Positions 14,932 through 57,480 of a DNA stretch of 60,539 bases are shown here, one piece after another. Position 1 is the stretch's first letter, and the number at the start of each line of letters is the position of its first letter. The position numbers and the translations under genes were made by a program. The stretch is from positions 1 to 60,539 of the forward strand of contig CAZDTE010000002.1 of assembly GCA_964508275.1 (NCBI GenBank). The letters run 5' to 3'. Source of the stretch: an uncultured Ardenticatenales bacterium. GTDB taxonomy: Bacteria; Chloroflexota; Anaerolineae; Ardenticatenales; JAADHH01. The notes under the pieces were generated by a model. That model had not been told where the DNA came from, searched no databases, and worked only from the letters and a program-made list of their open reading frames with translations.

Positions 14932-15031
14932 CCGGATCGCAAGCGTCTGATGATGCCAGTCGTCGGCCCTGGGGCGATACCGCCGCAGGGTGAGAAGGCG
15001 CGAGATCAAACCCCGAACTGAGGTGTACCCC

Positions 15032-33938: not shown

Positions 33939-34030
33939 GGGAGGCCGGTAAAGGTTGCCAACTTTCCAAAAGTTGGCAACCTTCACGGGGACACACTTTC
34001 CACCGAATTGTGTATGCCCCCCCCACCCGC
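33939..34030 (+). repeat. Palindromic repeat family, copy 2 (plus orientation)
   Basis: GGGAGGCCGGTAAAGGTTGCCAACTTTCCAAAAGTTGGCAACCTTCACGGGGACACACTTTCCACCGAATTGTGTATGCCCCCCCCACCCGC. Contains a 13-bp stem palindrome. Confidence 0.85.
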
Positions 34031-40827: not shown

Positions 40828-40862
40828 AAGAAGTTCGACTTCTCCCAGAAGTCGAACTTCTT
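40828..40862 (-). terminator. Perfect 15-bp-stem hairpin downstream of the histidine kinase gene (candidate operon terminator, weak U tract)
   Basis: AAGAAGTTCGACTTC-TCCCA-GAAGTCGAACTTCTT, about 40 nt after the kinase stop. On the minus strand it is followed by GTTGTG. Confidence 0.45.
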
Positions 40863-40901: not shown

Positions 40902-42326
40902 TCACGCAGCCGGCAGGCGGATCGTGAATGTGGTGCCCTTGCCAACCGCGCTGTGTACGGCGATGTGACCACCGAGCGTGTGCACGATCTCGCGGGTGAT
41001 GGCCAGGCCGAGGCCCGTGCCACCCTCGGCGGTGCGCGCCCGGTCCACGCGATAGAACCGTTCGAAGACCCGGGGCAGATCCTCGGGTGGGATGCCCTGG
41101 CCCGTGTCGGCCACGCGGATGACGACCCAGCGCCCGTTGCTGGGTACCGACTCAATCTGGCCAGTCAGGCGGACCGTGCCGCCGGCCGGTGTGTAACGGA
41201 GGGCGTTGTCCACAAGGTTGGTGAGCACCTGATTCAGCCGGTCCTCATCGGCGACAACAATCAGGCCGGGCGAAGAGGCAACGGCCTGCAAATCCACGTG
41301 GCGTTGCACCGCCTGTGGCCGGAATCGCTCTCCGCACCGCTCTAGCAAGTCCTGCACATTGAGTCGATCTTGACTGAACGTCACCTGGCCCGATTCCAGT
41401 CGCGAGAGTTCGAGGAGTTCGCTGACCAGGCGCGTCATGCGCCCGGCTTCCTGATGGATGATGCGCGCCGATTCGTGCTGGGCCTCCGGCGTAGACGCCG
41501 AGCCGTCGAGCAACGCCTGGGAAAAGCCCCGAATCGATGTCAGTGGTGTTTTCAGATCGTGGGAGACGTTGGCCAGGAAGTCGCGTTGGGTTTTGCGGGC
41601 GCGATTCACTTCGCGAGCCATGTGGTTGAACGCAGAAGCCAGCCGGCCAATCTCGTCGTCGCCGCTGATGACGATCTCTTGCTCGTAATCACCGGTAGCC
41701 ATCGACTGGGATGCCTTCGTCATCTCCTCAACCGGCCGGGTGATCGCCCGTGAGAGCAGCCCGCCGGCGGCCACACAGAGCACCAGCGTCAGAGCCAGGA
41801 CCAGCAGCAACGACGGCGCCAGTTCCAGCCAGGTGTCCACCAAGTCGGCTGCCGGCACGACGAGGGCGACGAACTGGGCCTTCTCCGGCGCGATACGCTG
41901 GGCCGGTGGGCCGAGGGGGATAAGCACGAAGAAAAGGTCCTGGCCGATGATCTTGCGGCGGCGCACCTCCGGGCTGAGGCCCGCATCCCGAAGCACGAAG
42001 GGGATGCGCTCGCCTGCGAGGCTCGCCGACGAATCGGTGTCCGCGACGACCAGACCGTCCCTCGAAAGCAGCACCAGCCGCACGCCGGCGGCATCCGCCT
42101 CGCGGCGCAAACGAGGCAAGAGGAGGGGGAGCGCGACCTGTCGTTCACCTACGAGGTTTGGGAGGCGTACAGAAATGGAAATGGCCAGAATGCGCAGGCT
42201 GCGCACAGCCGATTCTTCCTGACGGCTCTGCAAAAGCCAAGCGGCTGCACTGCCGGACAGCAGCAAGGAGAGGAGCGCGATCAGGGCATAGGTGGCGATC
42301 AGCTTGTGGCGCAACGTTCGAAACAT
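40902..42326 (-). CDS. Sensor histidine kinase (2 TM, HAMP, HisKA, HATPase_c)
   Basis: H-box FLANVSHDLKTPLTSIRGF, N box DNALRYTP and G boxes DTGQGI / GTGLGLAI. Trimmed to MFRTLRHKLIATYALIALL. The ORF extends to a TTG at 42425. Confidence 0.88.
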   Translation of the reverse strand: MFRTLRHKLIATYALIALLSLLLSGSAAAWLLQSRQEESAVRSLRILAISISVRLPNLVGERQVALPLLLPRLRREADAAGVRLVLLSRDGLVVADTDSSASLAGERIPFVLRDAGLSPEVRRRKIIGQDLFFVLIPLGPPAQRIAPEKAQFVALVVPAADLVDTWLELAPSLLLVLALTLVLCVAAGGLLSRAITRPVEEMTKASQSMATGDYEQEIVISGDDEIGRLASAFNHMAREVNRARKTQRDFLANVSHDLKTPLTSIRGFSQALLDGSASTPEAQHESARIIHQEAGRMTRLVSELLELSRLESGQVTFSQDRLNVQDLLERCGERFRPQAVQRHVDLQAVASSPGLIVVADEDRLNQVLTNLVDNALRYTPAGGTVRLTGQIESVPSNGRWVVIRVADTGQGIPPEDLPRVFERFYRVDRARTAEGGTGLGLAITREIVHTLGGHIAVHSAVGKGTTFTIRLPAA

Positions 42327-42408
42327 ACGGTGTGACCCCAGCGGGGGCCGAGGCCAACCCGGCCAACCGGTTGAGCCGTTACGCCCCGTCGCCGCGTAGG
42401 CCCCTCCC

Positions 42409-43089
42409 TCAATCTTCGTCGGCAATCAGTTTGTACCCGATGCCCCAGATCGTTTCTATGGCGACGCCGCTCTCGGCCAACTTGTCTCGTAGGCTGGCTA
42501 CGTGTACGTCCACGGTGCGGGTGTCGCCATAGAAATCGTAGCCCCAGACCGAATCGAGCAACTGGTCTCTGCTCAGCACCAGGCCGCGGTTTTGTACGAA
42601 GGCCCACAGGAGATCGAATTCTTTGGGACGCAGGGAGATCGGCTTATCACCCACCCGTACCTCGCGTCGGGCATGATCGAGGCGCAGGTTGCCCATCTCC
42701 AGGGCCCGTGGAGTCTTCGGAGGGATCTCGACTCGGCGCATAATGGCCTTGATGCGGGCCACAAGCTCACGGGGGTTGAACGGTTTGGTGACATAGTCGT
42801 CGGCGCCCAGTTCCAGGCCCACCACTTTGTCCACGTCGTCGTCGCGCGCGGTTAGCATGATGATGGGAAGATCGTTGCCGGCTTGCCGCAGGCGGCGGCA
42901 CACCTCCCAGCCGTCCATTGCGGGCAGCATGATGTCCAGCAACAACAGGTCCGGCCGCTCATCGGTCGCCCGCTGGAGCGCGGTCTTGCCGTCCGCCGCC
43001 CGTAGCACGGTGTACCCCTCTTTGCCCAGGTACAACTTGGCAAGCTGAAAGATGTTATCTTCGTCGTCGGCGACGAGAATCGTGGCCAT
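42409..43089 (-). CDS. OmpR/PhoB-family response regulator
   Basis: Receiver domain ILVADDED...LLLLDIMLPAMDG plus a winged-helix Trans_reg_C domain (LRPKEFDLLWAF..TRTVDVHVASLRDKL). Confidence 0.93.
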   Translation of the reverse strand: MATILVADDEDNIFQLAKLYLGKEGYTVLRAADGKTALQRATDERPDLLLLDIMLPAMDGWEVCRRLRQAGNDLPIIMLTARDDDVDKVVGLELGADDYVTKPFNPRELVARIKAIMRRVEIPPKTPRALEMGNLRLDHARREVRVGDKPISLRPKEFDLLWAFVQNRGLVLSRDQLLDSVWGYDFYGDTRTVDVHVASLRDKLAESGVAIETIWGIGYKLIADED

Positions 43090-43090
43090 G

Positions 43091-44770
43091 TCAACTTCTC
43101 CCCGAATGGTGCGAGCGAGGGTTGATCAGGGCCTTGATCTCGTGAACATGTTTGCGGGCGGCCTCTTCTCCCCGGCGGATGAATTCATCCGCCTGTTCGT
43201 ATTGCATGGTGTGAATGTCGGCCACTTCTGGCTTGATTAACACATCCACCGGCCCCATACGCGACTTGATGATCTCGCTCTCCATGATCTCCATCGCACC
43301 AGCGATGATGCCGATGATGTTTGGCAGCCGGCCCTGCCGGCGCATGTCCTGTCGTTCCAGTCGCTCCTCCAGGTCCGGGATCACGCTGGAGGCAATGATC
43401 GTCTCCACCCCTTGGTCGTATAGCACGCTCGTAGGCACTGGGTTCACCGTGCCCCCGTCGATAAAGTGGCGGCCATTTAGCTCCATCGGCTTGAAGACGC
43501 CGATGATGGAGATGCTGGCCCGCACCGCTTCGGCCACCGGGCCGCTGTGGAAGACCAGCTCCTCCCCGCTGTGAAAGTCGGCTGCCACGACGTAAAAGGG
43601 GATTTCGAGGTCGGAAAAGGTTTTGTTTCCCAAGAACTCTTGGATATACTTGAGGGTTTTCTTTCCTTGAATGAGGCTGGATCGCGGCGGCAGGCTGAAG
43701 TCCCAGAGGCCAAAGCGCAAGCCGGTGATCTTGGGGAGATCACGGGCGAAGGCAATCATTTCGTCCAGGCTCTTGCCGGCCGCGTACATCGCCCCGAACA
43801 GCGAGCCGGCGCTCGTGCCGGCCAGCACGTCAACGGGGATACCCTCTTCCTCCAGAACCCGCAACACGCCGATGTGCGCGATGCCGCGCGCGTTGCCGCT
43901 GGAAAGGGCCAGGCCGATCTGTCGTCCGGCGATCCGACGAGCCATGCTCCCCAGCCTGGCCGGATCAAATGGCGTGACCCAGTAGCGATCACCGGCCATC
44001 TCCTGGGCCCAGGGCACAGCTACCCCTCCAACCTGCACAACGGCTTCGGCCAGGTCCACCGCTTTTCGAGACATGGGAGTCTCGGCAGTGTCGATGGCCA
44101 GGCAGACGCGGGCGTAATCCTCCATGACTTGGCTCAACACTTCGGGAAGGTCATCAAGGGTGAGCAGTTGGGGTGTCGTGAAGGGGATGACGCCCGGTGT
44201 TCCGGGGTGCAAGTCCGGCACGGTGCTGCTCATCGGCATCCACAGGACGTCTTCCCGCGTTTGTTCAGCCAGGGCGCGCGCCATCTCGCTGCTGAATGCG
44301 CCACTGACCGCCACCACCCTCAGCTGCTTTTGTCGTACCGGATGGCGAATGGTCTCCTGCAGCCGCCGGCTCAACTCGCGGCTGATCGTCAGCCCCAGGG
44401 AGGGATGATCTCGCAGCAGAGCGTCGAGGTCCGCTTTGTGCAGCACCCACAGTTCGGCATCAATAGCCACGCGAACTGTGGCTGAGCGGCGTTCCCCAAG
44501 CAGAAGAGCCATCTCGCCAAAGAAGCTTCCCGGTCCCAGATCGGCCAGGGCGCGTTCCTCTTCGCCCGATCCGGATACAACCTGCACCTGCCCCGATTCG
44601 ATCAGGTACATCGAGTCTGCCGGGGCCCCTTCTTGGACGACGGTCTCCCCTTTCGTTAACCGCTGCATTTGCATGCGGTCTCTGATGACGCTTAGCGTTT
44701 CATCAGGCAGACTGCTGAAGAAAGAGATACGGCGCAGGTTCTGTTCCATGGACATAGTCTCGTCGGTCAT
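43091..44770 (-). CDS. Cyclic-nucleotide-binding (CAP_ED) domain fused to a patatin-like phospholipase
   Basis: CAP_ED phosphate-binding cassette FGEMALLLGERRSATVRV. Patatin oxyanion hole SSGNARG, nucleophile elbow GTSAG and catalytic Asp in FIDGGTVNP. The stop is 1 nt from the regulator ATG. Confidence 0.88.
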   Translation of the reverse strand: MTDETMSMEQNLRRISFFSSLPDETLSVIRDRMQMQRLTKGETVVQEGAPADSMYLIESGQVQVVSGSGEEERALADLGPGSFFGEMALLLGERRSATVRVAIDAELWVLHKADLDALLRDHPSLGLTISRELSRRLQETIRHPVRQKQLRVVAVSGAFSSEMARALAEQTREDVLWMPMSSTVPDLHPGTPGVIPFTTPQLLTLDDLPEVLSQVMEDYARVCLAIDTAETPMSRKAVDLAEAVVQVGGVAVPWAQEMAGDRYWVTPFDPARLGSMARRIAGRQIGLALSSGNARGIAHIGVLRVLEEEGIPVDVLAGTSAGSLFGAMYAAGKSLDEMIAFARDLPKITGLRFGLWDFSLPPRSSLIQGKKTLKYIQEFLGNKTFSDLEIPFYVVAADFHSGEELVFHSGPVAEAVRASISIIGVFKPMELNGRHFIDGGTVNPVPTSVLYDQGVETIIASSVIPDLEERLERQDMRRQGRLPNIIGIIAGAMEIMESEIIKSRMGPVDVLIKPEVADIHTMQYEQADEFIRRGEEAARKHVHEIKALINPRSHHSGRS

Positions 44771-44795
44771 TCGTTGGATTCCCTCATGAGCGTGA

Positions 44796-47700
44796 TTACA
44801 GGTTGGCGTTCGGCTCGTTCACAGCTAACGGAACCGAGGCCTCCCAATTGCTAGGATCGCCATTCGTTGTGCCGCGGTCGCTCCATGTTGCCTGCCGGCT
44901 CCGTGCTTCCGTCAAGGCGGGGCCGGCCTGCAATTGCTCGAATGTCTCTGCCGCCTGGGCGAGCAGCGCGCGGGCTTCGGCCTGGCGACCTTGGTTGGCT
45001 CGGAGGTCTGCAAGCCTGAGGCGAGACTTGGCCAGCTCAAAGGGGTGCCGGAGGGCGGCAAATATCTGGCAGGCGGCTTCCAGGTGCTCTTCCGCTGCCG
45101 GCAGGTCGCCGGCAGCGAGACATACCTGTCCGAGGACACGCCGGGCCGCGCCCTCATTGTTTTTGCTCTGCGTTTGGCGGGCCAGGGCGGCGGACCGGTT
45201 GGCCAGCACACTGGCTTCCTCGACCTCGCCCAACCTCAACAGGACATCCGCCATGAGCCACAATATCTCCGCCACCTGCTCGTTCGAGCCGACTTCGCCG
45301 GCCAGGGCCTGGCCGCGCTGCAAATGCCCTAGCGCGCTGCGGAATTCGCCACGCACCAGCGCCAGATGGCCCAGATTGGTGTGGGCAAAGGCCATGAGCA
45401 GGGGGTTGCGAATCCGCCCGGCCACCTCCAGACTCTTTTCCAGAGATTCCTCCGCCTGGTCGAAATTGCCACGATCCCGATAGATCAATCCCAGGTTGTT
45501 GTAGGCTACCGCCACACCCTCGGCGTCGCCCATCTGTTCGCTGTATTGCAGGCTGCGCTGCACACAGTCCAACGCGCGGCCCCATTCCCCCTGGATGATC
45601 AGCAGGCCGGCCAGGTTGCTGAGGGAGCTGGCCACCCCATAGGTGTAACCCATGCGCTCGCGCAGTTGCAGACCCTTTTCGGCGTACTCGGTTGCTTCTT
45701 CCCAGCGGCCGGTCTGGTAATACACGGCGACGAGGCGGTTGTAGGCGGAGGCGATGTCTTGGAATTGGTCCGTACCGTCCAGGATTTCCAGCGCGCGCAG
45801 GGCCCACGAGCGAGCCTTTTGCGATTGTCCCTGACGATAGTTCACCCAGCCCAAGTCGTTATACACGCGGGCCCGTTCTGGAGCGCGGGCCGTTTCCCCG
45901 TCCATGTCCAACTCGGCCAGGGCCAGGCCAAGCCAGCGCAATGCTTCGTTGTATTCTGCTTTGCGTTCCCAGGTGCGCCCGATCTTGCGCAACTGTTCGG
46001 CGATGCGGCGGTGCTGATCGGGCCCCGGCAGCTCGCGTTGGAGGGCGAGCGCTCGTTCGAGCGCCTGGAGTGCAGCGTCGTAGTCACCGGTGTAACTCTT
46101 GACATCCCCCAAGCCCTGAACCACACGAAGCTCCTGGTCGGGCGTCGGCGCGATTCCTGTGAAGTACGCCTCGGCTCGCTGGAAGAGGTTCTCGGCTTGC
46201 TCGTACGCGAACCGTTCCATGGCCCGCTCGGCGGCGCGGGTGGTGTAGGGCATGGCTCGTTCCGCGTAGTCCGCCTCGCCGAAGTGGAAGGCCAGCAAAT
46301 CGACCACCTCGTCGAGACGGCCGGCGTACAGCTGCTCCAGACCAAAACCAGCACGCCGGTGCAGCGCTTTGCGACGTGGCGAAAGGAGCACACCGTACAC
46401 CGTCTCTCGCACAAGGGTGTGGCGGAAGGTGTAGGAGCGCTCATCGCCATCATGCTCCAGGTCCAGGAACTCTCTGTCGGTCAGTTCTCGCAACGCCGCG
46501 TCGAGCGCCGGGCGGTGTTCGTTGCCGACGATGGAATCTAGCAGGGGGTAGGGGATGCGCGGCCCGACGACGGCACTGCATTGCAGTACGTATTTCGGTT
46601 CCCCTGGGAGACGGTCGACACGGCTCATCAGCAGGGCGTGGAGGGATTGCGGGATTCCCAACGCGTTCAGGTCCAGATCGGGTTGCGCCTGCCATTCCCC
46701 GTTCGTCCGCCAGATCGCCCGTTGCTCGATGAGCAGGCGGACAATCTCTTCCAGAAAGAAGGGCGTGCCCTCGGCCTTCTCCGAAATGCCCTGCTGCACC
46801 TGAGGCGGTAAGGCCGGTGACTTGAGGAGCGAATCAACCAGCGTGCGGCTGTCGGCCAGGGACAGCTTGGTCAGCGGCAGATTCAGGTAACGCGCCGGGC
46901 AGGTTTCGGAAGCGACATGGTGGATCGCTGACGCGGCCTGACCCTCGTAGGGCCGGGAGATGAGGCACAGGCAGAGGGCGCGCTGCTCTACCAAGGGTAT
47001 GAGAAACAGCAGGAGGTCCAGGGAGGCGCGATCTACCCAGTGCAGATCGTCCGCAATGATGACGAGAGGCTGGGTGCGGGCAGTAGCAAGAATCAGCCGG
47101 CGCAAGGCCAGAAAGGTCTGCCGGCGCAATTGCTCCGGGGCGAGGTGGCGAATGCGACTCGACCCGACAGGGTCCGTGATCGGTATATCCAGCATCCGCT
47201 GTACAAAAGGGAGTACGCCGGCATATTCGTCGGGCAAGAGAGCCCGGACTCCCTGAAGGCTCTTCTCTTGTCGCGCGTCGTCATCGTCTCCGTAGCGGAT
47301 CCCGAGAAGCTGGTTGAAGAGTTGTTGAAACAGCCAGTAGCTGGTGTGCGTGGCGTGGGAGCGACACGTTTCTTCCAACACCCGCAGGCGTTGTTGAAGC
47401 ATGAACCGCTTGCTCTCTCTGACCAGGCGCGTTTTGCCGATGCCCGCCTCGCCGGTCAACAACACTACATGCCCTTCGTTTCGTTGCACGACGCCGTCGA
47501 TCGCCTGGCGAAGTTGGGCCAGTTCCCGATCGCGCCCGATCATGGGGGAATGTAGGCCGCGAACGCCGCGAATCTGTCCGGGATGCGTTCTCAGGCCGAC
47601 AACTTCGAACGTTTCCGCCGGGGCCTCGCGCCCCTTGACGGTGACCGAGCCATGTGGCAGGTAGTCGAACAAAGCCTCGGTCGCTGCCCACACGGTCTGA

Positions 47701-48425
47701 CTGACCAGGATCGTGTCGGGGATCGCCAGTTCCTCCAGACGGGAGGCCAGGTTCACGGTGTCGCCGATCACGGTGTACTGCATCCGCAGGTCCGAGCCAA
47801 CGGTGCCGGCGATAACCGTGCCGGCGTTCAGTCCGATGCGAACGTGTAACGCGAGGCCGTATTCGCTCTCCAGCCGCCGGTTGAACGTTCGGAGGAAGTC
47901 GAGCATACCGAGGGCCGCCCGCACAGCGCGCTCCGGGTCGTTCTCGTGGGCTAGGGGCGCGCCGAAGAGGGCCATGATGCCATCGCCGATGAACTTGTCG
48001 ATCGTTCCCTCGTATCGGTGGATCTCATCGGCGAAGCCGCGCATGCACTCGCCCAACAGATCGTAGACGCGCTCGGGGTCCATCGTCTCGGACAAGGTCG
48101 TGAAGCCCTGCAGGTCCGCAAAGAGCACGGTCACGTTCCGGCGTTCGCCTTCGATCTTGCCCCGCGAGGCCAGGAGCTTTTCGACGAGATGTTCGGGGAC
48201 GTAGCTGCGCAGACGCTTCCAGGCTTCGTCGTCGCCGGCTGAGGTGGCCGTGGCGGCCGGCTGTTCGGTCAGCAGGCTGGAGCCACAGTTCCCACAGAAT
48301 CTGAATCCGGCCGGGTTCTCGAAGCCACATTGCAGGCAGGCGATTCCCAGCGCAGCAGCACAGGCTGCGCAGATGTGCATACCTGGCGGATTGTCGTGGC
48401 CACAAGCTGGACAACGCTGAGACAT
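44796..48425 (-). CDS. Double zinc-ribbon / class III adenylate(guanylate) cyclase / AAA_16 P-loop (STAND) / TPR multidomain protein
   Basis: 1209 aa. CPACG..CAAC and CLQCG..CGNCG zinc ribbons. Cyclase motifs VLFADLQGFT, DKFIGDGIMALFG and YTVIGDTVNLASRLE. Walker A GEAGIGKTRL and Walker B IIADDLHWVD. About 500 aa of TPR-like repeats with no terminal HTH. Confidence 0.9.
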   Translation of the reverse strand: MSQRCPACGHDNPPGMHICAACAAALGIACLQCGFENPAGFRFCGNCGSSLLTEQPAATATSAGDDEAWKRLRSYVPEHLVEKLLASRGKIEGERRNVTVLFADLQGFTTLSETMDPERVYDLLGECMRGFADEIHRYEGTIDKFIGDGIMALFGAPLAHENDPERAVRAALGMLDFLRTFNRRLESEYGLALHVRIGLNAGTVIAGTVGSDLRMQYTVIGDTVNLASRLEELAIPDTILVSQTVWAATEALFDYLPHGSVTVKGREAPAETFEVVGLRTHPGQIRGVRGLHSPMIGRDRELAQLRQAIDGVVQRNEGHVVLLTGEAGIGKTRLVRESKRFMLQQRLRVLEETCRSHATHTSYWLFQQLFNQLLGIRYGDDDDARQEKSLQGVRALLPDEYAGVLPFVQRMLDIPITDPVGSSRIRHLAPEQLRRQTFLALRRLILATARTQPLVIIADDLHWVDRASLDLLLFLIPLVEQRALCLCLISRPYEGQAASAIHHVASETCPARYLNLPLTKLSLADSRTLVDSLLKSPALPPQVQQGISEKAEGTPFFLEEIVRLLIEQRAIWRTNGEWQAQPDLDLNALGIPQSLHALLMSRVDRLPGEPKYVLQCSAVVGPRIPYPLLDSIVGNEHRPALDAALRELTDREFLDLEHDGDERSYTFRHTLVRETVYGVLLSPRRKALHRRAGFGLEQLYAGRLDEVVDLLAFHFGEADYAERAMPYTTRAAERAMERFAYEQAENLFQRAEAYFTGIAPTPDQELRVVQGLGDVKSYTGDYDAALQALERALALQRELPGPDQHRRIAEQLRKIGRTWERKAEYNEALRWLGLALAELDMDGETARAPERARVYNDLGWVNYRQGQSQKARSWALRALEILDGTDQFQDIASAYNRLVAVYYQTGRWEEATEYAEKGLQLRERMGYTYGVASSLSNLAGLLIIQGEWGRALDCVQRSLQYSEQMGDAEGVAVAYNNLGLIYRDRGNFDQAEESLEKSLEVAGRIRNPLLMAFAHTNLGHLALVRGEFRSALGHLQRGQALAGEVGSNEQVAEILWLMADVLLRLGEVEEASVLANRSAALARQTQSKNNEGAARRVLGQVCLAAGDLPAAEEHLEAACQIFAALRHPFELAKSRLRLADLRANQGRQAEARALLAQAAETFEQLQAGPALTEARSRQATWSDRGTTNGDPSNWEASVPLAVNEPNANL

Positions 48426-48450
48426 GCGGCCCTCTCCCTTACACCATCAG

Positions 48451-48474
48451 CGGATGTTTGTCGACAAACGTCCG
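48451..48474. promoter_or_regulatory. 24-bp near-perfect palindrome (CGGATGTTTGTCGACAAACGTCCG) between the promoter and start codon of the cyclase operon; candidate operator
   Basis: The core GTTTGTCGACAAAC (48456-48469) is a perfect palindrome and the outer arms have one mismatched pair. Confidence 0.55.
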
Positions 48475-48480
48475 TTCACA

Positions 48481-48509
48481 ATTATACAACACATTGCCCC
48501 CGCACGCAA
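48481..48509 (-). promoter_or_regulatory. Sigma70-type promoter of the cyclase operon (TTGCGT-17-TATAAT on the minus strand)
   Basis: -10 is the reverse complement of 48481-48486 and -35 is the reverse complement of 48504-48509, with an exact 17-nt spacer. Confidence 0.65.
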
Positions 48510-48609
48510 CATACTAAAGGTACTATCAGAAGCCTTACCACCACGCCAAGGTAGTGTATCCCTTACGGTGGATATTCGGCCAGGGGGAACATTGTGCATC
48601 CTGCGTCAT

Positions 48610-48698
48610 GGGGCGGGCAAAGGTTGCCAACTTTCCAAAGGTTGGCAACCTTTCACGAGGACACACTTTCCACCGAATTGTATGCACCACCCCACGCC
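48610..48698 (+). repeat. Palindromic repeat family, copy 3 (plus orientation)
   Basis: GGGGCGGGCAAAGGTTGCCAACTTTCCAAAGGTTGGCAACCTTTCACGAGGACACACTTTCCACCGAATTGTATGCACCACCCCACGCC. The 13-bp stem is 48619-48631 / 48641-48653. Confidence 0.85.
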
Positions 48699-50026: not shown

Positions 50027-51721
50027 ATGACCTACGGTGCTGGTGAGACACAAGTAGCCCACGACCGCACACTAGATCAGAGGGCTCAGGGATGGCTTCC
50101 GAGGTCTGGATGGACGCTTGGGTTGGCCGTCCTGATCGCAGCCGTCGCAATATTCCACATTGCGACCTTACGTCGTTTTCCGATAGTATATGTAGATGAG
50201 GCCTGGATGGCGAGCCGCGCTTGGGCATGGCTCCACACTGGTCTAAATTTCGGCCCACTGGACGCAGGCGTATGGGACAAGTTTGAAGGTTACTGGACGG
50301 TTCTCCCATTGCTGCCTACTCTAGTCAATGCCACGTTTATTCGGCTTTTTGGATTGAAGGTTGGCTCTCTGCGTCTGGCGTCGCTGCTGGCCGGATTTGG
50401 GCTTCTGGCCATAGTCTATTACATTTTCTATGAACTTTACCGCTCTCGTCGTGGCGGCCTCATAGCAGTTTTCCTGGTCTCAACATCCCTCTCTTTCCTG
50501 TACTCTTCCCACTTCATTCGGCAGGATATCTATGTTGCTACATTAGGCTTTGGCGCAATAGCGCTCTACCTCGCCGGACGTCGCAGACAGCAATCGGTTC
50601 TCAGCTTGTTGGCAGGCCTGCTGATAGGTGCAGCCTTTGAATTCCATCCAAACGGTGCGATCTATGCGCCAGTGATCGGGGCCTTGTACCTGCTGGACGA
50701 TGGGAGGCATTTTGTTCGTCGGCGGAGCTTCTGGGTCTTCGTGTTTGGAATCTGTCTCGGTCTGGCTTGGTATGCCTGGCTCCACATTATACCATACCCT
50801 CAGACGTATGTCGCTATGATGAGCCGCAAATCCCTCGTCACACACATGCCGCCTATTGCCTCACGCAACCCCATCACGATCTTGCTCGGTCTTTCGAGCA
50901 TGGCAGGATACCTCTTCCTGGGCACTGGCGGGCGCATATTGGCAACAGCGGTCATTGCTACCATCGTTCTACGGCACAAGTGGACCGCTCTTCACGTGAA
51001 GCCTCTTGTGATGCTTGCAGTAGGAGTGACAACATTTGCACTTCTCATCCGAAATAGGGTGGGACATTACGTCATCCTTGTTGCGCCTTTTTCAGACATC
51101 GTTTTGGCTGGCTGGATCGAGCAAGCCCTGCAAGCCACAGGCGTGGATAGTCCCTGGCTAGGTAGGGGGAATGCCGTTGTCCTCTCAGCAGTAGCGATGA
51201 GTCTCGTTTTCACGTATGGGACGGTCATACTGACCCCACCGCCTGGAGACATGGAACTGGTTGCTAATCGCATCGAACTAGTCATGTCGCCAAGTGATAC
51301 GGTTATCGGTTCTCAGACATACTGGTTTGGCCTCTATCAATATAACTACCAGTCTTGGCATCAGATTCTGCGCTATCAATGGTTTAATCCGGGTAGCACA
51401 TTTGAAGAGGCCATGAAAGCGCTGCGCCCTGATGTGCTGGTCATGGATGTCTATTGGCGTTCTTTCACTGTGGAGGGTCCACAACACAGCCCGCGATCAG
51501 GCCTTCCGCCTGGTGACTGGGACAGGGGTCTATCGAATGAAGAGGTGAAATCCTTCCTCACTCGCTATGGGAGATTGGAGGATAGATTTTATACTGCTTC
51601 ATACGGAACGGTTGAGATATACTCTCTTCACTGGGATCGCCAAGACGTAGGGTTCGTGGACGCTGACAAGCGCCCTGATGCAGAGCCAGCCATCCGCAAG
51701 GAGATGTCACGTTGGAGGTAG
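50027..51721 (+). CDS. GT-C membrane glycosyltransferase G1 (GT39/PMT_2-like), lower G+C than its neighbours
   Basis: 564 aa and polytopic. Acidic first-loop motif VYVDEAW after TM1. Hand-counted G+C is 28-35 per 60 nt in three lines. Confidence 0.85.
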   Translation: MTYGAGETQVAHDRTLDQRAQGWLPRSGWTLGLAVLIAAVAIFHIATLRRFPIVYVDEAWMASRAWAWLHTGLNFGPLDAGVWDKFEGYWTVLPLLPTLVNATFIRLFGLKVGSLRLASLLAGFGLLAIVYYIFYELYRSRRGGLIAVFLVSTSLSFLYSSHFIRQDIYVATLGFGAIALYLAGRRRQQSVLSLLAGLLIGAAFEFHPNGAIYAPVIGALYLLDDGRHFVRRRSFWVFVFGICLGLAWYAWLHIIPYPQTYVAMMSRKSLVTHMPPIASRNPITILLGLSSMAGYLFLGTGGRILATAVIATIVLRHKWTALHVKPLVMLAVGVTTFALLIRNRVGHYVILVAPFSDIVLAGWIEQALQATGVDSPWLGRGNAVVLSAVAMSLVFTYGTVILTPPPGDMELVANRIELVMSPSDTVIGSQTYWFGLYQYNYQSWHQILRYQWFNPGSTFEEAMKALRPDVLVMDVYWRSFTVEGPQHSPRSGLPPGDWDRGLSNEEVKSFLTRYGRLEDRFYTASYGTVEIYSLHWDRQDVGFVDADKRPDAEPAIRKEMSRWR

Positions 51722-52947
51722 CACCCCTGAGAAGCAAAGCATCTGATCGTTCAAGAAAACGTAGCTGGCTACAAGTTTGGGTGCTACTTGTGCTCGGTGC
51801 CTTGCTCTTTGTAGCTTTGACCATCGCATTGCGAGAAACGTTTACATCCCCCCATCCCGGCGCCAATGACTTCTACATCCCCTGGCGCGCCGTACGCGCG
51901 CTGGTCGTCGAAGGGCGCAATCCCTACTCACCCGAGGTCACTCGAGACATCCAGCAAGTGCTCTTTGGCGGCCCACGTCCGCCGGGGACTCATCAATACG
52001 CCTTCGCCTACCCCCTCACCGTGCTACCGCTGCTGGCACCACTCGCTCCTTTGCCCTACGATTGGGCGGAGGCGATCTGGGTGACCCTGTCAATGTGGGC
52101 CTTGCTGGGCGGACTCTTCTTGTCGCTGCGCGTGCCGGACTGGTCCCCGCGGCCGCTCTTCATGGCGGTGCTGGCCATCTGGGCGTTACTCTTCTATCCC
52201 GCAGCGCGCGCCCTGATCCTGGGCCAGATCGCGGCGATTGTGTTCTTCCTGGCCACCGCAAGCATCTACCTGCTCCACCGGGGCCATCCGGCCTGGGCAG
52301 GCGTAGCCCTGGCCGCCACGACCATCAAACCGCAAATGGTCGTCTTGCTGATCCCGATTCTGCTGCTGTGGGCGACTGAACGGCGGCAGATGATCGTCTG
52401 GCGCACATTCGCCGTGACGCTGGCCGGCATGGTGCTGCTTCCGCTCCTGTGGCTGCCCACCTGGCCGCTCGATTTCGTCCGCGCCGTGACCGACTACGCC
52501 GGCTACGTCCCCGTCGGCTCTCCCGTCGGGATCGCGCTTTCGGCCTTGCCGGCGTCCGGGGTCATGACCATCGCGTTGGACGGTGCGCTCATGGCGCTCC
52601 TGGCCTACGGATACTGGCGTGAACGGGCGCACGGAACGGCGAGCCTGTTGTGGCTCGCCAGCCTGGCCATCGTCGTTGGCCTGCTAATCGTGCCGCGCGG
52701 CGGAACGACGAACCAGGTCCTGCTGATCATTCCCTGCATGCTGGCGACTTGCTGGTTCGTGCATCGCCACCGCGGCCCGCTGATGACCTCTCTGATCCTG
52801 GCCCTGCTTCTCGTCCTGCCGTGGCTCCTGTTCCTGGCTACCGTGCAGGGGAACACCGAGCAAGTGATCATGTTCGTGCCCCTGCCGTTCGCTGTTCTGC
52901 TGCTACTCTGGCCGATCCGGCCGGGAGGGCGTCCATGCGCGTCGTAG
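51712..52947 (+). CDS. GT-C membrane glycosyltransferase G2 (DUF2029/GT87-like)
   Basis: 411 aa. First-loop motif GANDFYIPW and TTIKPQMVVLL (the KPQ motif typical of DUF2029). The TTG start overlaps the G1 stop. Confidence 0.82.
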   Translation: MEVAPLRSKASDRSRKRSWLQVWVLLVLGALLFVALTIALRETFTSPHPGANDFYIPWRAVRALVVEGRNPYSPEVTRDIQQVLFGGPRPPGTHQYAFAYPLTVLPLLAPLAPLPYDWAEAIWVTLSMWALLGGLFLSLRVPDWSPRPLFMAVLAIWALLFYPAARALILGQIAAIVFFLATASIYLLHRGHPAWAGVALAATTIKPQMVVLLIPILLLWATERRQMIVWRTFAVTLAGMVLLPLLWLPTWPLDFVRAVTDYAGYVPVGSPVGIALSALPASGVMTIALDGALMALLAYGYWRERAHGTASLLWLASLAIVVGLLIVPRGGTTNQVLLIIPCMLATCWFVHRHRGPLMTSLILALLLVLPWLLFLATVQGNTEQVIMFVPLPFAVLLLLWPIRPGGRPCAS

Positions 52948-53213
52948 CCGGCCGGATCGGCCTCGCCGCGCTGGTCATCGCCTGGCTGACTGCCGTCCTG
53001 GTCAGTTTCTACGCCGTGCAAAAACCGTTCGATCTGGCGCAGGTTCGAGCCATGGCCCAAACCGGTTGGAACATTGCCGTCGCTGTGATCGTGCTCGGCG
53101 CCGCCACACGCCTCGGCCTGTGGATCAACCGTTGCTTCTCGCTGCCCGCGCTCGGTATCGGTGAACGTTTCGGGCTCCAGCCCCTTCTGGAGGGCGGCGA
53201 TGAACTCGATTGA
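52935..53213 (+). CDS. Small two-TM membrane protein G3 (92 aa), possibly a gene remnant
   Basis: MRVVAGRIGLAALVIAWLTAVLVSFYAVQKPF.. fills the 252-nt gap between G2 and G4 exactly. Its ATG overlaps the G2 end and its stop overlaps the G4 start. Confidence 0.55.
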   Translation: MRVVAGRIGLAALVIAWLTAVLVSFYAVQKPFDLAQVRAMAQTGWNIAVAVIVLGAATRLGLWINRCFSLPALGIGERFGLQPLLEGGDELD

Positions 53214-54339
53214 GCGGATCTTCCACCCCAGCCGTCGAATTCATTCGATGGCTGCTGCCCTGGAGTTGGCTCTACTGGCCCTGCTGGCCGGGTGGGTGCT
53301 CACCACCTGGCGCTACCCGGCCGGCGACTTCCTGAACAACGCCTGGGCCCCGGCCCGCCTCCTCTGGCTGGGTGGCAACTCGCCGTATGACCAAGCCGCA
53401 GCGAGCCAACTCCTCGCCGGTGCGGCCACCAGCCCGGTGCTGCAAGCCGTCTGGACTCCTCTGGCCCTGCCGCTCTTCTTGCCCCTGTCTTTCCTCCCGC
53501 CCGGACTGGCGGCGAACCTGTGGTTCCTGGCCCAGTTTGCCTGGCTGTTGATGGCGGCTGCCCTACTGAGCCGGTCGAAGGCTGCCGGTCCTCGTTCGCT
53601 CCTTGCCCTGACGGTGCTCATGCTCTTTCCCCCCGCCCTGAACGCGCTAATGCTGGGACAGGTGACGGCATTCGCTGTGGTCGTTCTCGTGGCCGGAGCG
53701 CTGGCCGCCGATCGTGGGCGAGTCCGGCTGGCCGGGTTCCTGATGGCCTGGGCCTTGATCAAGCCGCAATTGACGCCACTGATTCTGCTGGCGCTCGGTG
53801 TTTGGGTGTGGCAAGGGAGGCGGCTTCGGCAACTGCTGATCGGGGGATCGTGCGGTCTGGTCACCGGCCTGGGGCCCATCATCGCGCTGCGACCGACCAT
53901 CGCCGGCGAGTACGTGAGCGCACTGCGCACCAACCCGCAATGGCTACATGCCAGCCTGCCGGCCCTCGTGCGCGAAGCGACCGGCAAGGCCGGTGCAGGA
54001 TACGCAACCTGGCTCATCCTCGCCACCGCCGTCCTGTGGGTGACCTACCGCGTCTGGCAAGTACTGCCCTTCCGGCCGGCTGTCGCCTGGACGTTGGCGC
54101 TCACTCTATTGGTCACGCCCTACGTGTGGAGCTGGGATCAAGTGCTCCTGCTGCCGCTGATGGGGCACGTCTCCCTGTCGACACGGGGCTGGCAGGCCGC
54201 CGGCTGGTGGATCGGCCTGGCCCTGATCGCCGGTGGCTACCTCTGGATCGGGCTGCGCGTGCAGAACGCCAGCCACTGGTACACCTGGGTGCCTTACGCG
54301 GTGATGGCTTTGGCCTGGGGGATGCGCGATGGGGCCTAA
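53200..54339 (+). CDS. GT-C membrane glycosyltransferase G4 (DUF2029/GT87-like)
   Basis: First-loop motif PAGDFLNNAW and WALIKPQLTPLILL (KPQ motif). About 10 hydrophobic segments. Confidence 0.8.
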   Translation: MNSIERIFHPSRRIHSMAAALELALLALLAGWVLTTWRYPAGDFLNNAWAPARLLWLGGNSPYDQAAASQLLAGAATSPVLQAVWTPLALPLFLPLSFLPPGLAANLWFLAQFAWLLMAAALLSRSKAAGPRSLLALTVLMLFPPALNALMLGQVTAFAVVVLVAGALAADRGRVRLAGFLMAWALIKPQLTPLILLALGVWVWQGRRLRQLLIGGSCGLVTGLGPIIALRPTIAGEYVSALRTNPQWLHASLPALVREATGKAGAGYATWLILATAVLWVTYRVWQVLPFRPAVAWTLALTLLVTPYVWSWDQVLLLPLMGHVSLSTRGWQAAGWWIGLALIAGGYLWIGLRVQNASHWYTWVPYAVMALAWGMRDGA

Positions 54340-55855
54340 GCCCAGTCGTATCAGAATCGAGCACCTATGGGTGTTAGCTCTCCTGGCCAGTGCCTTCACA
54401 CTGGTCTCGGTCAGCCCGGTGCCGCCGCACGACTTCTGGTGGCACGCCCGCATCGGTGAACAGATCGTCCACCTGCGGGCCATCCCCACTGCCGACACGT
54501 TCTCGTTTGTCGCCCAAGGCCGGCCGGTGTTTTACCAGAGCTGGCTGAGTGAGGTGGCCCTCTACGGCCTGCTATACGCTGGCGGGTTGCCATTGGCGAT
54601 CTTCGTGCAAGCGTTGCTGATTGCCTTCACCTACGGCTGGCTGTACCTGCTGTGCCGTGAGGGAAGCGGAGGGAATCACCGCCTCGCTGCGTTCTGCACC
54701 GTCTGGGTGCTGTTCGCCGCCTCAAATAACTGGGCCATCCGTCCCCAGAGCTTCTCGTTCTTGCCTTTCCTCCTGTTCCTCTGGGTGCTACGAGGCTACG
54801 TACGCGGCCGGCGAGTCCCGGTCTGGTTGTTGCCCGTGGTGATGGCCCTGTGGGTCAACCTGCACGGCGCGTTCATCCTGGGCGCGATCATGGCCCTGCT
54901 CGTGCTTGCCGGATCGCTGCTCGACCGCCACCTGCCGCTTCGTCGCGACTCCGGCCCCCCGGCGCTCAAGCCGCTGGCCGTCGCCGCGCTTGCCACCCTG
55001 CCGGCGATGCTGCTGAACCCGCGCGGTCTCGGCGTGATCGGCTACGTCATCAACCTGCTTACCAACCCACCCAGCCAGCAGTTGATCATGGAATGGCGGC
55101 AGCCAGACATCCACGGCTTCCAGGGCCGGTTGTTCTACGCCCTGCTGCTGGTTTGTGTGCTTGCGTTTGCGACCTCGCGTCGTCGCCTCCGCTGGGCCGA
55201 CCTGCTCCTCTTTGCCGCCTTCGCCTGGATGGGACTGACCTCCATCCGCTACGTCATCTGGTTCGGTCTGGTGGCCGCCCCGCTGTTGGCCGAATCGCTG
55301 GCTGCGCAGAACTGGCCGATCAGCGAACGTTGGGCCCGGTTCAAGCAAAGTCGCCTGGGACAGATCCTCTTCGTCGGTCAAGAAGGCGGCTATCCCGGCT
55401 TCACGGTTCTGATCATCACGCTGATCGTCCTGGAGGTGCTGATCGCCCTGCCCTGGAACAAAGAGCGCCTGCCACTGCCCCCCGCTGTCGCCGGCTTGAC
55501 AACGCCCGACACTCCCGTGGCCGCCACGCAGTTCCTGCTGGAGCACGACCTGCCCGGTCCCCTGTTCCACGACATGGGCTACGGCAGCTACCTGATCTGG
55601 GCCGCTTGGCCTCGCGTACGGGTCTTCAGCGATCCGCGTGTCGAGTTGTACCCGCTGGATCTCTGGCTAGACTACGCCACGATCTCGTCTGCCCGATACG
55701 ATTATGCCGCTTTGCTGCAGCGCTACGGCATACAGACCCTCATGCTCGACCAGGTGAATCAGGCAGCCCTCATCGAGGCGGTCAGTGCGGCAGGCAGTGG
55801 CTGGCAACCGTTCTACGACGACGGGCGCACTGCCATCTTCCGGAGAGCCCCATGA
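54329..55855 (+). CDS. GT-C-like polytopic membrane protein G5 (family not recognised)
   Basis: 508 aa. First-loop motif PPHDFWWHARIGE. Many TM segments plus a C-terminal soluble domain. Confidence 0.78.
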   Translation: MGPKPSRIRIEHLWVLALLASAFTLVSVSPVPPHDFWWHARIGEQIVHLRAIPTADTFSFVAQGRPVFYQSWLSEVALYGLLYAGGLPLAIFVQALLIAFTYGWLYLLCREGSGGNHRLAAFCTVWVLFAASNNWAIRPQSFSFLPFLLFLWVLRGYVRGRRVPVWLLPVVMALWVNLHGAFILGAIMALLVLAGSLLDRHLPLRRDSGPPALKPLAVAALATLPAMLLNPRGLGVIGYVINLLTNPPSQQLIMEWRQPDIHGFQGRLFYALLLVCVLAFATSRRRLRWADLLLFAAFAWMGLTSIRYVIWFGLVAAPLLAESLAAQNWPISERWARFKQSRLGQILFVGQEGGYPGFTVLIITLIVLEVLIALPWNKERLPLPPAVAGLTTPDTPVAATQFLLEHDLPGPLFHDMGYGSYLIWAAWPRVRVFSDPRVELYPLDLWLDYATISSARYDYAALLQRYGIQTLMLDQVNQAALIEAVSAAGSGWQPFYDDGRTAIFRRAP

Positions 55856-57480
55856 CTCTGCGGCGCACGCTGGCCGGACTGTTCCTGGTCACCCTGATCG
55901 TCAGGGCCCTAACTGCCTGGCCGTTGCAACAGCCCGGCTACTTCGACGCCTACTACTACGTGAACGTGGCCCACAACCTTCTGCACGGGCAGAGTCTGGT
56001 GGAGCACGTGGTCTGGAACTTCCTGGACAACCCAGCGACCATTCCCCACCCCAGCCACCTCTACTGGATGCCCCTATCGACATTCCTGGCGTATACGGGC
56101 ATGTGGCTATTCGGTGACAGTTACCGGGCCAGCCATGTCCCGTTCGTGTTGCTCTCTTCGCTGCTGCCGCCACTGGCAGCCTGGCTGGCCTATCACGTCT
56201 GGCGAAACCTCCGTTACGCCTGGGCTGCCGGCCTGCTTACCCTGTTCAGCGGCTTCTACTTCATCTACTGGGTGACGCCAGAAAACTGGACGCCGTTCGC
56301 CCTGGCGGTGGACGCGGCGTTGGTGGCCCTCTACGTTGGCCTGCGCACGGGGCGCGAGCGCTACGTCATCGCCGCCGGCCTGGCGGCCGGCTTCGCTCAC
56401 CTGGCCCGCGCCGACGGCATCCTGCTCCTCCCCGTTGCTGTCCTTGCCATCGCCGCCCAGAACACGGCCCCCAACCCGAAACTCGAAACTCGAAACCCGA
56501 AACCGTCCCGTTCATCATTCATCATTCGTCATTCATCATTGTTTGTCCTCGCCTACTTCCTTGTCATGGCCCCGTGGTTCTACCGCAACTGGCAAGTCGC
56601 CGGGACACCTCTGCCCACCGCCGGCACCAAGACGATCTTTCTGCGTAGCTACGACGACTTATTCGGCTACGGTCTAGACCTCACCCTGCGCAGCTACCTG
56701 GCCTGGGGGATCGGGCCGATCCTGCGATCCAAACTGATGGCCACGCTGTGGAATCTGGTGATCCTGGCCGGTGCGTTACAATTCTTCCTGGCCCCGTTCG
56801 CCGTCATCGGGTTCTGGCAGACCCGTCGCCACCCGCTGTGGCGACCATTCTTCGTCTACTGCGCGGCCCTCGTCGCCGCGATGGTGCTGGTCTTCACCTT
56901 CCCCAGCCGGCGTGGCTCCATGCTCCACTCTGCAGCGGCCCTGATCCCGTTCGCCTGTGCCGCCGTGCCTGCCGGAGTCGAGGCGACTGTCCAACGCATC
57001 GCCCGTTGGCGGCACACGTGGAACGTTGAAGAAGCCCAGCGCTTCTTCGTCTACGGTTTCGTCGCGCTGGCTGCTGTCATCAGCCTCTTCCTCTACGCGC
57101 AGGCGATCCACGAACCGTGGCTGGGCGAATCTCTCCTGCCGCCGTGGAATGAGCGCGGGCTGGTTTACCGGGAGGTGGACACCTGGCTGGCAGAGCACGA
57201 TCCCGCTGCCGGGCGGCTGATGGCGGTCGATCCACCCGCCGTCCACTACTTCACCGGACGCGAGGCGGTGGTAATCCCCAACAACGGCGTCGACCTGATT
57301 CGGGCCGTGAGCCGCCAGTTCGACGTTTCCTACCTCGTCCTGGAAAAAGATCACATCACTCCCCTGAACGGCCTTTACGATGACCCAGAGAGCCTGCCCG
57401 GGTTCGTGTTGCTGGCCCGCTTTCAAGATGCCAAGGACAATCCCGTGTACCTTTTCCACCTGAAGAGGGTTGAACGTTGA
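55852..57480 (+). CDS. GT-C membrane glycosyltransferase G6 (GT39/ArnT-PMT-like)
   Basis: Trimmed from ORF 54850-57480 to MTLRRTLAGLFLV, with an ATGA overlap with G5. First-loop motif GYFDAYYYV. Contains in-frame heptanucleotide arrays at 56475-56538. Confidence 0.85.
   Translation: MTLRRTLAGLFLVTLIVRALTAWPLQQPGYFDAYYYVNVAHNLLHGQSLVEHVVWNFLDNPATIPHPSHLYWMPLSTFLAYTGMWLFGDSYRASHVPFVLLSSLLPPLAAWLAYHVWRNLRYAWAAGLLTLFSGFYFIYWVTPENWTPFALAVDAALVALYVGLRTGRERYVIAAGLAAGFAHLARADGILLLPVAVLAIAAQNTAPNPKLETRNPKPSRSSFIIRHSSLFVLAYFLVMAPWFYRNWQVAGTPLPTAGTKTIFLRSYDDLFGYGLDLTLRSYLAWGIGPILRSKLMATLWNLVILAGALQFFLAPFAVIGFWQTRRHPLWRPFFVYCAALVAAMVLVFTFPSRRGSMLHSAAALIPFACAAVPAGVEATVQRIARWRHTWNVEEAQRFFVYGFVALAAVISLFLYAQAIHEPWLGESLLPPWNERGLVYREVDTWLAEHDPAAGRLMAVDPPAVHYFTGREAVVIPNNGVDLIRAVSRQFDVSYLVLEKDHITPLNGLYDDPESLPGFVLLARFQDAKDNPVYLFHLKRVER
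56475..56538 (+). repeat. Two heptanucleotide tandem arrays inside G6: (CYCGAAA)x4 at 56475-56502 and (TTCRTCA)x4 at 56511-56538
   Basis: Units read directly: CCCGAAA CTCGAAA CTCGAAA CCCGAAA, then TTCATCA TTCATCA TTCGTCA TTCATCA. They translate as NPKLETRNPKP..SSFIIRHSS. Confidence 0.88.

Follow-up and report, generated by a model that had tools for sequence, protein, structure and literature searches.

Does a bacterial operon that places a STAND-type class III cyclase beside a patatin-fold lipase with its own cyclic-nucleotide-binding domain arm the cell against invaders, or does it serve the cell's own membrane? The question is raised by four minus-strand genes in a 60,539-nt stretch of contig CAZDTE010000002.1 (GCA_964508275.1) from an uncultured Ardenticatenales bacterium (the whole stretch is hereafter called the window), which encode, in this order, the cyclase, the lipase, an OmpR response regulator, and a HAMP sensor kinase, as read from the open reading frames (ORFs). 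A sequence-only reading of this DNA took the four genes for a "membrane-attack or defence-like module" on the analogy of Avs, Pycsar, and CBASS, with the caveat that they might equally form a physiological lipid-remodeling circuit. We find the caveat to be the better reading. The cluster is probably a lineage-conserved cyclic AMP (cAMP) circuit of Anaerolineae-class Chloroflexota that gates a (lyso)phospholipase of the Neuropathy Target Esterase (NTE) type and is coupled to a two-component system; its purpose is most likely physiological, in membrane-lipid or envelope homeostasis or in stress adaptation, and not abortive infection.

The genes are closely packed. Twenty-five nucleotides separate the cyclase stop (44796) from the lipase ATG (44770), a single nucleotide lies between the lipase TGA (43091–43093) and the regulator ATG (43089), and 82 nt precede the kinase when its start is placed at ATG 42326. 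The kinase ORF (40902–42425, minus strand) is readable from a TTG at 42425; the internal ATG is preferred because homolog alignments begin there (residue 34 of the longer ORF). Checked against ORFs and translations, these spacings and all the motifs quoted in the sequence-only reading hold, and Pfam searches returned the domains that it had named: two zinc ribbons, a class III cyclase, AAA_16, and TPR repeats with no helix-turn-helix (HTH) in gene 1, CAP_ED and patatin in gene 2, and the OmpR/HAMP pair.

Joint Inheritance of the Cyclase and Lipase Genes

Relatives of the cluster were sampled by searches that included a metagenome scan with degenerate patterns, which added at least ~10 full-length loci and also caught generic patatins. 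The closest homologs are all from Chloroflexota (Ardenticatenales, Anaerolineales, and Caldilineaceae). Among the matches listed, a cyclase gene is followed by a lipase gene in the window and in 17 other loci of Anaerolineae-class Chloroflexota (L002, L003, L004, L007, L013, L016, L018, L081, L083, L087 [partial], L088, L091, L167, L169, L170, L177, and L178), with a spacing of −8 to 39 nt where genes were called, and the adjacency is kept down to 42%/49% protein identity. The full four-gene cassette is retained in the clade of the window (L081, L083, and L167; 67%–78% identity), and in L167 the end of the cyclase gene runs into the start of the lipase gene. The Anaerolineales-type order is a cyclase gene, one or two lipase genes, and a GAF-HisKA_3 kinase gene, often followed by a gene for a 671-residue protein. 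The cyclase partners the lipase in two clades of a neighbor-joining (NJ) tree. Sampling from the cyclase side added three further homologs (41%–42% identity), two of which have a lipase gene downstream, while the third is a paralog in an unrelated context.

Pairwise distances of the cyclases and the lipases are closely correlated over 17 loci (Mantel r = 0.956, a value reached in 0 of 2000 permutations), and nearly as closely within the Anaerolineales subset (r = 0.943). The cyclase and the lipase are inherited together as a tight pair, and the coupling that the sequence-only reading had drawn from one genome is kept outside it.

Domain Architecture of the Lipase

Gene 2 (43091–44770, minus strand) encodes a 559-residue cytosolic protein in which a cyclic-nucleotide-binding (CNB) domain of the CAP_ED type, a degenerate P-loop-like domain, and a patatin domain follow one another. 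The CNB domain (residues 36–122, 44405–44665; Pfam cNMP_binding, 2.2e-23) has a fold that matches the CNB domains of CRP, GlxR, PKA-R, and HCN, and Gly85, Glu86, Arg95, and Thr98 of its phosphate-binding cassette are invariant among 25 homologs. The patatin domain (residues 287–450, 43421–43912; Pfam Patatin, 5e-33) has the oxyanion motif GNARG, the nucleophile motif GTSAG, and the DGG motif, and its catalytic dyad, Ser320 and Asp438, is likewise invariant among the 25 homologs. The translation contains FGEMALLLGERRSATV, SSGNARG, GTSAG, and DGG.

Between these two lies a domain that was overlooked in the sequence-only reading. An AlphaFold2 model of the full lipase (predicted local distance difference test score, pLDDT, of 80.6) has a third folded domain between CAP_ED and patatin, a middle α/β domain at residues ~150–285 (43916–44323, minus strand), which reached a pLDDT of 88.8 when modeled alone. 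Its top Foldseek matches in the PDB are ParA (3ea0), MinD (1hyq), BY-kinases, BcsQ, FleN, and Soj, and the middle domains of family members give weak Pfam matches to CBP_BcsQ, CbiA, and AAA_31; the Walker A lysine is absent. A Pfam search gave no direct match of this domain to PF24179 (NTE_Ploop, the "Neuropathy Target Esterase family P-loop like domain"), and a sequence-profile search of the PDB returned nothing decisive. Searched against 1.84 billion representative proteins, a profile of the domain (A4) found only 39 clusters (50% identity), nearly all of them ~550-residue proteins with the domain in the same position. One protein reached by this profile, P0282, has PF24179 at the same position, and the PF24179 region of P0282 aligns with the middle domain of the window lipase in hhalign with 87.8% probability (E 3e-6). 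Model, Foldseek, and hhalign results together point to a degenerate, MinD/ParA-like version of the NTE P-loop-like domain.

The patatin domain points the same way. Its best structural match is PlpD (5fya; Foldseek E 1e-21, 30%–31% identity) and its best NCBIfam match is RssA, compared with 16%–20% identity (E ~1e-13) to the CBASS effectors CapV and CapE, and many homologs of the lipase carry the JGI annotation "NTE family protein." The PlpD/RssA-type patatin and the profile link to PF24179 argue for an enzyme of NTE type rather than CapV type, and by sequence and modeled structure gene 2 appears to encode a small and divergent bacterial form of this architecture. The order of CNB domain, P-loop-like domain (PF24179), and patatin domain with a Ser-Asp dyad is that of PNPLA6/NTE, PNPLA7, Drosophila SWS, and Mycobacterium tuberculosis Rv2565, enzymes that deacylate (lyso)phospholipids for membrane homeostasis (PMC9025805, PMC5704489). 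In contrast to these, the window lipase has a single CNB domain in place of three and lacks a transmembrane (TM) anchor, and its middle domain is shortened and divergent, being tied to PF24179 by profile comparison only. Literature searches found no operon that joins an NTE-family member to a dedicated cyclase and a sensor kinase, and no description of a bacterial cAMP-gated CAP_ED-patatin or of the present operon.

The CAP_ED-patatin gene is tandemly duplicated in L004, L007, L013, L015, L018, L088, and L177. The second copies are 43%–46% identical to the window protein, and those of Anaerolineales form a clade of their own in the NJ tree.

Domain Architecture of the Cyclase

Gene 1 (44796–48425, minus strand) encodes a 1209-residue cytosolic class III adenylate cyclase of STAND type. 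A double zinc ribbon (residues 5–48, 48282–48413; Pfam DZR, 1.6e-9) is followed by the class III cyclase homology domain (residues 96–272, 47610–48140; Pfam Guanylate_cyc, 2.1e-29), an AAA_16 (STAND-type) nucleoside triphosphatase (NTPase) domain (residues 296–485, 46971–47540; Pfam AAA_16, 2.1e-26), and a TPR array (residues ~770–1165, 44931–46118; Pfam TPR_12, 7.8e-45, and TPR_MalT, 6.8e-22). No HTH family, including the C-terminal LuxR-type HTH, is among the Pfam matches of the protein. A protein identical to it at 100% is present in public data, on a 62-kb contig.

The motifs VLFADLQGFT, DKFIGDGIM, QYTVIGDTVNLASRLE, GEAGIGKTRL, and IIADDLHWVD are all present in the translation. In an alignment of 28 family members (39%–73% identity) the metal-binding Asp104 and Asp148, the substrate pair Lys144 and Thr218, and the transition-state residues Asn225 and Arg229 are invariant, as are Gly325, Gly328, Gly330, and Lys331 of Walker A and Asp460 of Walker B, which indicates that both enzymatic activities of the protein are under purifying selection. 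Together with the invariant cassette and dyad of the lipase, this bears out the intact active sites described in the sequence-only reading. The second zinc ribbon (Cys30, Cys33, Cys44, and Cys47) is conserved in at least 90% of the aligned sequences, and many positions of the TPR array are conserved too. Lys/Thr is a substrate pair of the purine/adenine type, known from class IIIb (sAC-like) cyclases. Class III cyclases need to dimerize for activity, and signaling by STAND proteins proceeds through oligomerization.

A class III domain followed by a P-loop STAND NTPase is also found in mammalian full-length soluble adenylyl cyclase (ADCY10, sACfl) and in mycobacterial Rv0386, Rv1358, and Rv2488c, of which Rv0386 also has TPR repeats; how the STAND part bears on cyclase regulation has yet to be settled (PMC12802110; 10.1101/2024.03.06.583649). 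The window cyclase has a single catalytic domain, in contrast to C1 and C2 of sACfl, and lacks the LuxR HTH output of Rv0386; it differs from both in its N-terminal double zinc ribbon and in the candidate effector encoded immediately downstream. The best NCBIfam match of the cyclase-NTPase region is TIGR03903, the TOMM kinase/cyclase fusions (residues 90–754), which share the cyclase, AAA_16, and TPR core; the score of 275.6 bits is far below the family cut-off of 705.75, the window protein has no kinase domain, and no genes for TOMMs or other ribosomally synthesized and post-translationally modified peptides (RiPPs) lie nearby. Given this match, some relatives may regulate peptide natural-product loci. 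A Frankia_peptide (RiPP-like) gene is found close to a 41%-identical cyclase paralog in L176 (6001–13489), which itself overlaps the start of a 1084-residue WHD_MalT/TPR/BTAD protein.

Several cyclase homologs of 733–766 residues lack the TPR array. A 733-residue homolog in L168 (3501–6795), 68% identical, has the order DZR, cyclase homology domain, and AAA_16, and is followed by transposase-like HTH_23/28/29/32 genes with no lipase gene. We therefore rejected the 733-residue type (P0127) as a natural short form, since the one examined precedes such transposase-like genes; the copy in L168 was probably truncated by an insertion sequence.

Two-Component Partners

Gene 3 (42409–43089, minus strand) encodes an OmpR-family response regulator of 226 residues (Pfam Response_reg and Trans_reg_C), and gene 4 (40902–42326, minus strand) a membrane sensor histidine kinase of 474 residues from ATG 42326 (Pfam HAMP, HisKA, and HATPase_c), with two TM segments and an outer loop of ~150 residues. 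Neither protein reached an NCBIfam equivalog cut-off.

The sequence-only reading had correctly listed this pair, with the suggestion that it may set expression or provide a second output. Regulator orthologs (59%–83% identity) adjoin the lipase gene in L001, L006, L008, L015, L081, L083, and L167, and the OmpR/HAMP pair lies downstream of the lipase both in the clade of the window and in Ardenticatenia. In at least 18 loci, several of them without a cyclase, a GAF-HisKA_3 kinase gene is directly downstream of the lipase gene instead. In L178, where a regulator ortholog adjoins the cyclase, the OmpR/HAMP pair (59% and 37% identity) is divergently upstream of the cyclase gene and a GAF kinase gene is downstream of the lipase gene. 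A sensor kinase thus directly follows the lipase in most family loci examined, and most of the loci without a cyclase still have one there, as an OmpR/HAMP pair or as GAF-HisKA_3. This link, which is conserved more widely than that to the cyclase, had also escaped the sequence-only reading; it makes a sensor kinase the oldest and most general partner of the lipase. The two-component pair is not peripheral, and the kinase is the most conserved neighbor of the lipase.

Proposed Circuit and Competing Readings

In the circuit that we propose, an endogenous ligand or protein on the TPR array, together with nucleotide exchange at the NTPase, would promote oligomerization and so the assembly of active cyclase dimers. 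The product would be cAMP, since the Lys/Thr pair is of the purine/adenine type. Binding of cAMP to the CAP_ED domain of the lipase would then relieve autoinhibition, with the signal passing through the degenerate P-loop-like (MinD/ParA-like) domain as a dimerization domain, and the lipase, acting like NTE-family enzymes (PMC9025805, PMC5704489), would deacylate (lyso)phospholipids in the membrane of the cell itself. The resulting change in the membrane or envelope would be read out or co-regulated by the membrane-bound HAMP kinase and the OmpR regulator, a part that the GAF-HisKA_3 kinase may take in sister lineages.

Several points weigh against this circuit. STAND and TPR architecture and cyclic nucleotide (cNMP) signaling are common in immune systems. 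We infer the product of the cyclase, the binding of cAMP, and the gating of the lipase alike from sequence. About half of the family lipase loci among the matches listed have no cyclase within 10 kb (L006, L008, and L015 of Ardenticatenia; L009, L014, and L017 of Caldilineaceae; L086; and others), so that the lipase does not need a dedicated cyclase next to it and may simply draw on the general cAMP pool of the cell. Lipase and regulator lie 176–231 nt apart in the three closest relatives, where the two-component genes may for this reason form a transcription unit of their own. For NTE-family enzymes themselves, regulation by cyclic nucleotides still awaits proof (PMC9025805), and a 2026 preprint places some STAND-fused cNMP cyclases (NACHT, AP-ATPase) in a predicted "immune clade" (10.64898/2026.08.12.744502).

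The lipase loci without a nearby cyclase also favor a reading in which regulation is shared without a private link: the cyclase would feed a global cAMP pool that serves CRP-type regulators and many CAP_ED proteins, the lipase would read this pool or another ligand, and their adjacency would reflect co-expression or lineage history. Other cyclases are indeed encoded in these genomes (e.g., a CHASE2 cyclase in L170), the cyclase paralog in L176 stands beside unrelated partners, and a high Mantel correlation is expected for any two vertically inherited genes. We nevertheless consider this reading rather unlikely, given that gaps of at most 39 nt (with one 8-nt overlap) have been kept in two separate clades at ~42% cyclase identity, and that two of the three further cyclase-side homologs again have a lipase gene immediately downstream.

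A bolder reading, which we regard as improbable, is that filamentous Chloroflexota use the genes as a switch for immunity or programmed cell death that has become fixed in the chromosome: the TPR/STAND cyclase would detect an invader or a damage signal and make a cAMP burst, the NTE-type lipase would dismantle the membrane of the affected cell, and the two-component system would spread or limit the response. Were this so, the lipase would be a new class of effector for cNMP-based immunity, and the operon would be the bacterial example of an NTE-family lipase gated by a cyclic nucleotide that could serve as a precedent.

Genomic Context and the Case for Defense

In an anti-phage or abortive-infection system, the TPR/STAND part would sense a phage component, the cyclase would respond with a cNMP burst, and the cNMP-gated patatin would destroy the membrane. 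The architecture recalls this logic of STAND sensor, cNMP signal, and patatin effector, and the preprint on STAND-fused cyclases cited above lends it some plausibility, as do the PADLOC matches at the domain level described below and the flanking genes, which are not the same in the window as in its closest relatives, L081 having a tyrosine recombinase upstream. The surroundings are nevertheless those of a core genome. The window encodes RecN, NAD kinase, HisRS, ribosomal protein S1, FtsK, PcrA/UvrD, RF2, and MurJ, along with a LacI/ABC sugar system, SurE, an enoyl-CoA hydratase, phosphofructokinase, and many glycosyltransferases, and no defense or mobile-element genes were found in its 60 kb, in agreement with the sequence-only reading. 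Related loci are also housekeeping in character; their only defense-type matches within 10 kb are a generic match to the Apyc1 Pfam family (L084/L085) and an McrBC pair (L170), both several kilobases from the module and not adjoining it, the McrBC pair being at the far end of L170.

Synteny is conserved, and the Anaerolineales loci keep to a fixed position, often near fpg, which lies a few kilobases upstream in L004, L016, L018, L088, L169, L170, and L177. A gene for a YegS-like (DAGK_cat) lipid kinase is just upstream of the cyclase in L003, L169, and L170 (divergent in the latter two), and in L169 a PlsY acyltransferase gene is also nearby; these lipid-metabolism neighbors fit a role in lipid homeostasis. 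Measured against L169 within Anaerolineales, Fpg is 67%–71% identical, the lipase 65%–69%, the GAF kinase 57%–63%, and the cyclase 58%–60% overall (catalytic domain 71%–78%, NTPase 58%–62%, and TPR 52%–54%). Judged by these identities, the lipase and the cyclase diverge at about the rate of Fpg, which is that of ordinary chromosomal genes, and the TPR sensor region is conserved rather than hypervariable or diversifying.

System-specific models gave no more encouragement to a role in defense. PADLOC runs on the four proteins returned matches at the domain level to the PycC, CAP_ED-effector, and phospholipase-effector models, all of them generic cyclase, CAP_ED, and patatin matches that do not identify any one system: with 98.8 bits, the best match to PycC scores no better than that to the generic Pfam Guanylate_cyc model (102.9 bits), and the phospholipase-effector matches reach 24 bits only. 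PADLOC gave no match to Avs or other system-specific models, only a weak one to PDC-S27 (E 0.008), and neither PADLOC nor Pfam detected a CD-NTase in the four genes or their neighbors. No full-length family member was found on 2.9 million viral contigs, where only patatin-domain-only relatives occur, and the family is as narrow as the 39 clusters described above indicate.

The comparison with individual immune systems runs along the same lines. Pycsar, with a PycC-clade cyclase that produces cCMP or cUMP, and Pucsar share with the window a class III-type cyclase followed by CAP_ED fused to an effector domain (10.64898/2026.08.12.744502); however, the effector here is an NTE-type lipase with no TIR, 3TM, or TM domain, the cyclase is a 1209-residue STAND protein with purine-type substrate residues, and the genes lie in a conserved core chromosome, not in a defense island. 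With CBASS CapV/CapE the likeness ends at a nucleotide messenger predicted to switch on a patatin-fold lipase, since a CD-NTase and a SAVED or CapV-type sensor are both absent, and the ligand sensor is a classical CAP_ED. In contrast to Avs, the N-terminal enzymatic domain of gene 1 is a cyclase, not a cell-killing effector. The sequence-only reading had itself named conservation as a core locus of the lineage as grounds to refute its proposal; the genes largely form such a locus, and on that measure the defense reading fails. On core chromosomal position, synteny, Fpg-like divergence, generic PADLOC matches, a lipase of PlpD/RssA/NTE type, and the viral search, we hold anti-phage defense to be very improbable, and STAND, cNMP, and patatin parts alone are not a defense signature.

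Very improbable, too, is a role of the genes in the development or programmed death of filamentous Chloroflexota, for example in the fragmentation of filaments or in sacrificial lysis, as a chromosomally fixed "conflict-type" system of the kind described for multicellular bacteria. Such a role would agree with the recurrence, in the conflict systems that multicellular prokaryotes possess, of STAND/TPR proteins and cNMP cyclases (PMC7159879), with a vertically fixed module whose intracellular lipase could act on the cell's own membrane, and with the tandem duplication of the lipase gene in several loci. Against it stand the slow evolution of the sequences and the absence of the accessory components by which those systems are defined (vWA-MoxR, VMAP, caspase, and effector-associated domains) from the four genes and the surveyed neighborhoods.

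Some further features of these neighborhoods were noted. The proteins matching Pfam "Anti-Pycsar_Apyc1" (L084, 4529–5305; L085, 4597–5376) have a metallo-β-lactamase fold of the cNMP phosphodiesterase type and are encoded inside an ABC-transporter operon ~5 kb upstream of cyclase-less Ardenticatenia lipase/two-component loci. L169 (5866–6075) and L170 (6200–6400) have a small ORF of 66–69 residues with a signal-peptide-like N terminus directly ahead of the cyclase gene and in the same orientation; no convincing counterpart was found upstream of the window cyclase. The window is unusually rich in membrane glycosyltransferase genes (PMT_2, GT87, and TMEM260-like), with at least six (7301–9646, 14990–16891, and 50027–57480), four of which stand in a row just past the enoyl-CoA hydratase gene that adjoins the cluster. 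The cassette in L167 likewise has PMT_2 genes as its flanking genes.

Transcription Signals and Repeat Elements

A putative promoter of the cluster (48481–48509, minus strand) consists of TTGCGT (−35, 48509–48504), a 17-nt spacer, and TATAAT (−10, 48486–48481), followed by a conserved TGTGAA. Upstream of the cyclase gene in L081, L082, and L083 the block TTGC.T-17-TATAAT-TGTGAA is kept in an alignment whose flanking sequence has diverged, and on this ground we accept it as the likely promoter of the cluster. The sequence-only reading had described it as near-consensus. Both hexamers and the spacer are indeed present; the description goes too far for the −35 hexamer, which agrees with TTGACA at 3/6 positions only, and for this reason the promoter was missing from the list of a consensus scan. 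A perfect 14-bp palindrome in the 5′ leader, GTTTGTCGACAAAC (48456–48469), also exists as reported, and its proposed role as an operator was rejected, as it is not conserved in relatives that keep the promoter block (L081 and L083).

The 15-bp stem-loop reported after the last gene is real (40828–40862, minus strand, 40 nt past the kinase stop). Its predicted folding energy of −29.8 kcal/mol (z = −5.4) was equaled in 0 of 200 shuffles. The T tract is weak and a terminator consensus scan did not list the hairpin, which is likely a transcript end or stabilizer.

A repeated non-coding element of ~70–145 nt occurs in three intergenic copies in the window, at 5528–5672 (plus), ~48546–48692 (minus orientation), and ~33940–34010 (minus orientation, partial), one of which comes to within 36 nt of the cyclase −35 hexamer on its upstream side. 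The core of the element carries the hairpin AAGGTTGCCAAC / GTTGGCAACCTT, the full element folds as nested stems, and the motif AAGGTTGSCAACCTT has 6 matches compared with 0.09 expected. Rfam at gathering thresholds gave no match anywhere in the window, the element included. Since the corresponding upstream stretches of L081 and L083 do not contain it, we suspect a lineage-specific element, similar to a miniature inverted-repeat transposable element (MITE) or a repetitive extragenic palindrome (REP), or a small RNA.

Significance

The likely physiological circuit of these Chloroflexota touches on two regulatory questions that extend well beyond the lineage. Biochemical work on sACfl from 2025 did not find a regulator that acts via the STAND module (PMC12802110), and direct cyclic-nucleotide control of NTE lipases, including the product of the human disease gene PNPLA6, has never been clearly shown (PMC9025805). 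With a STAND cyclase encoded beside an NTE-type lipase, both of these old questions become testable in one small operon, and the specific prediction, that cAMP from the window cyclase would gate the window lipase, is testable with two recombinant proteins.

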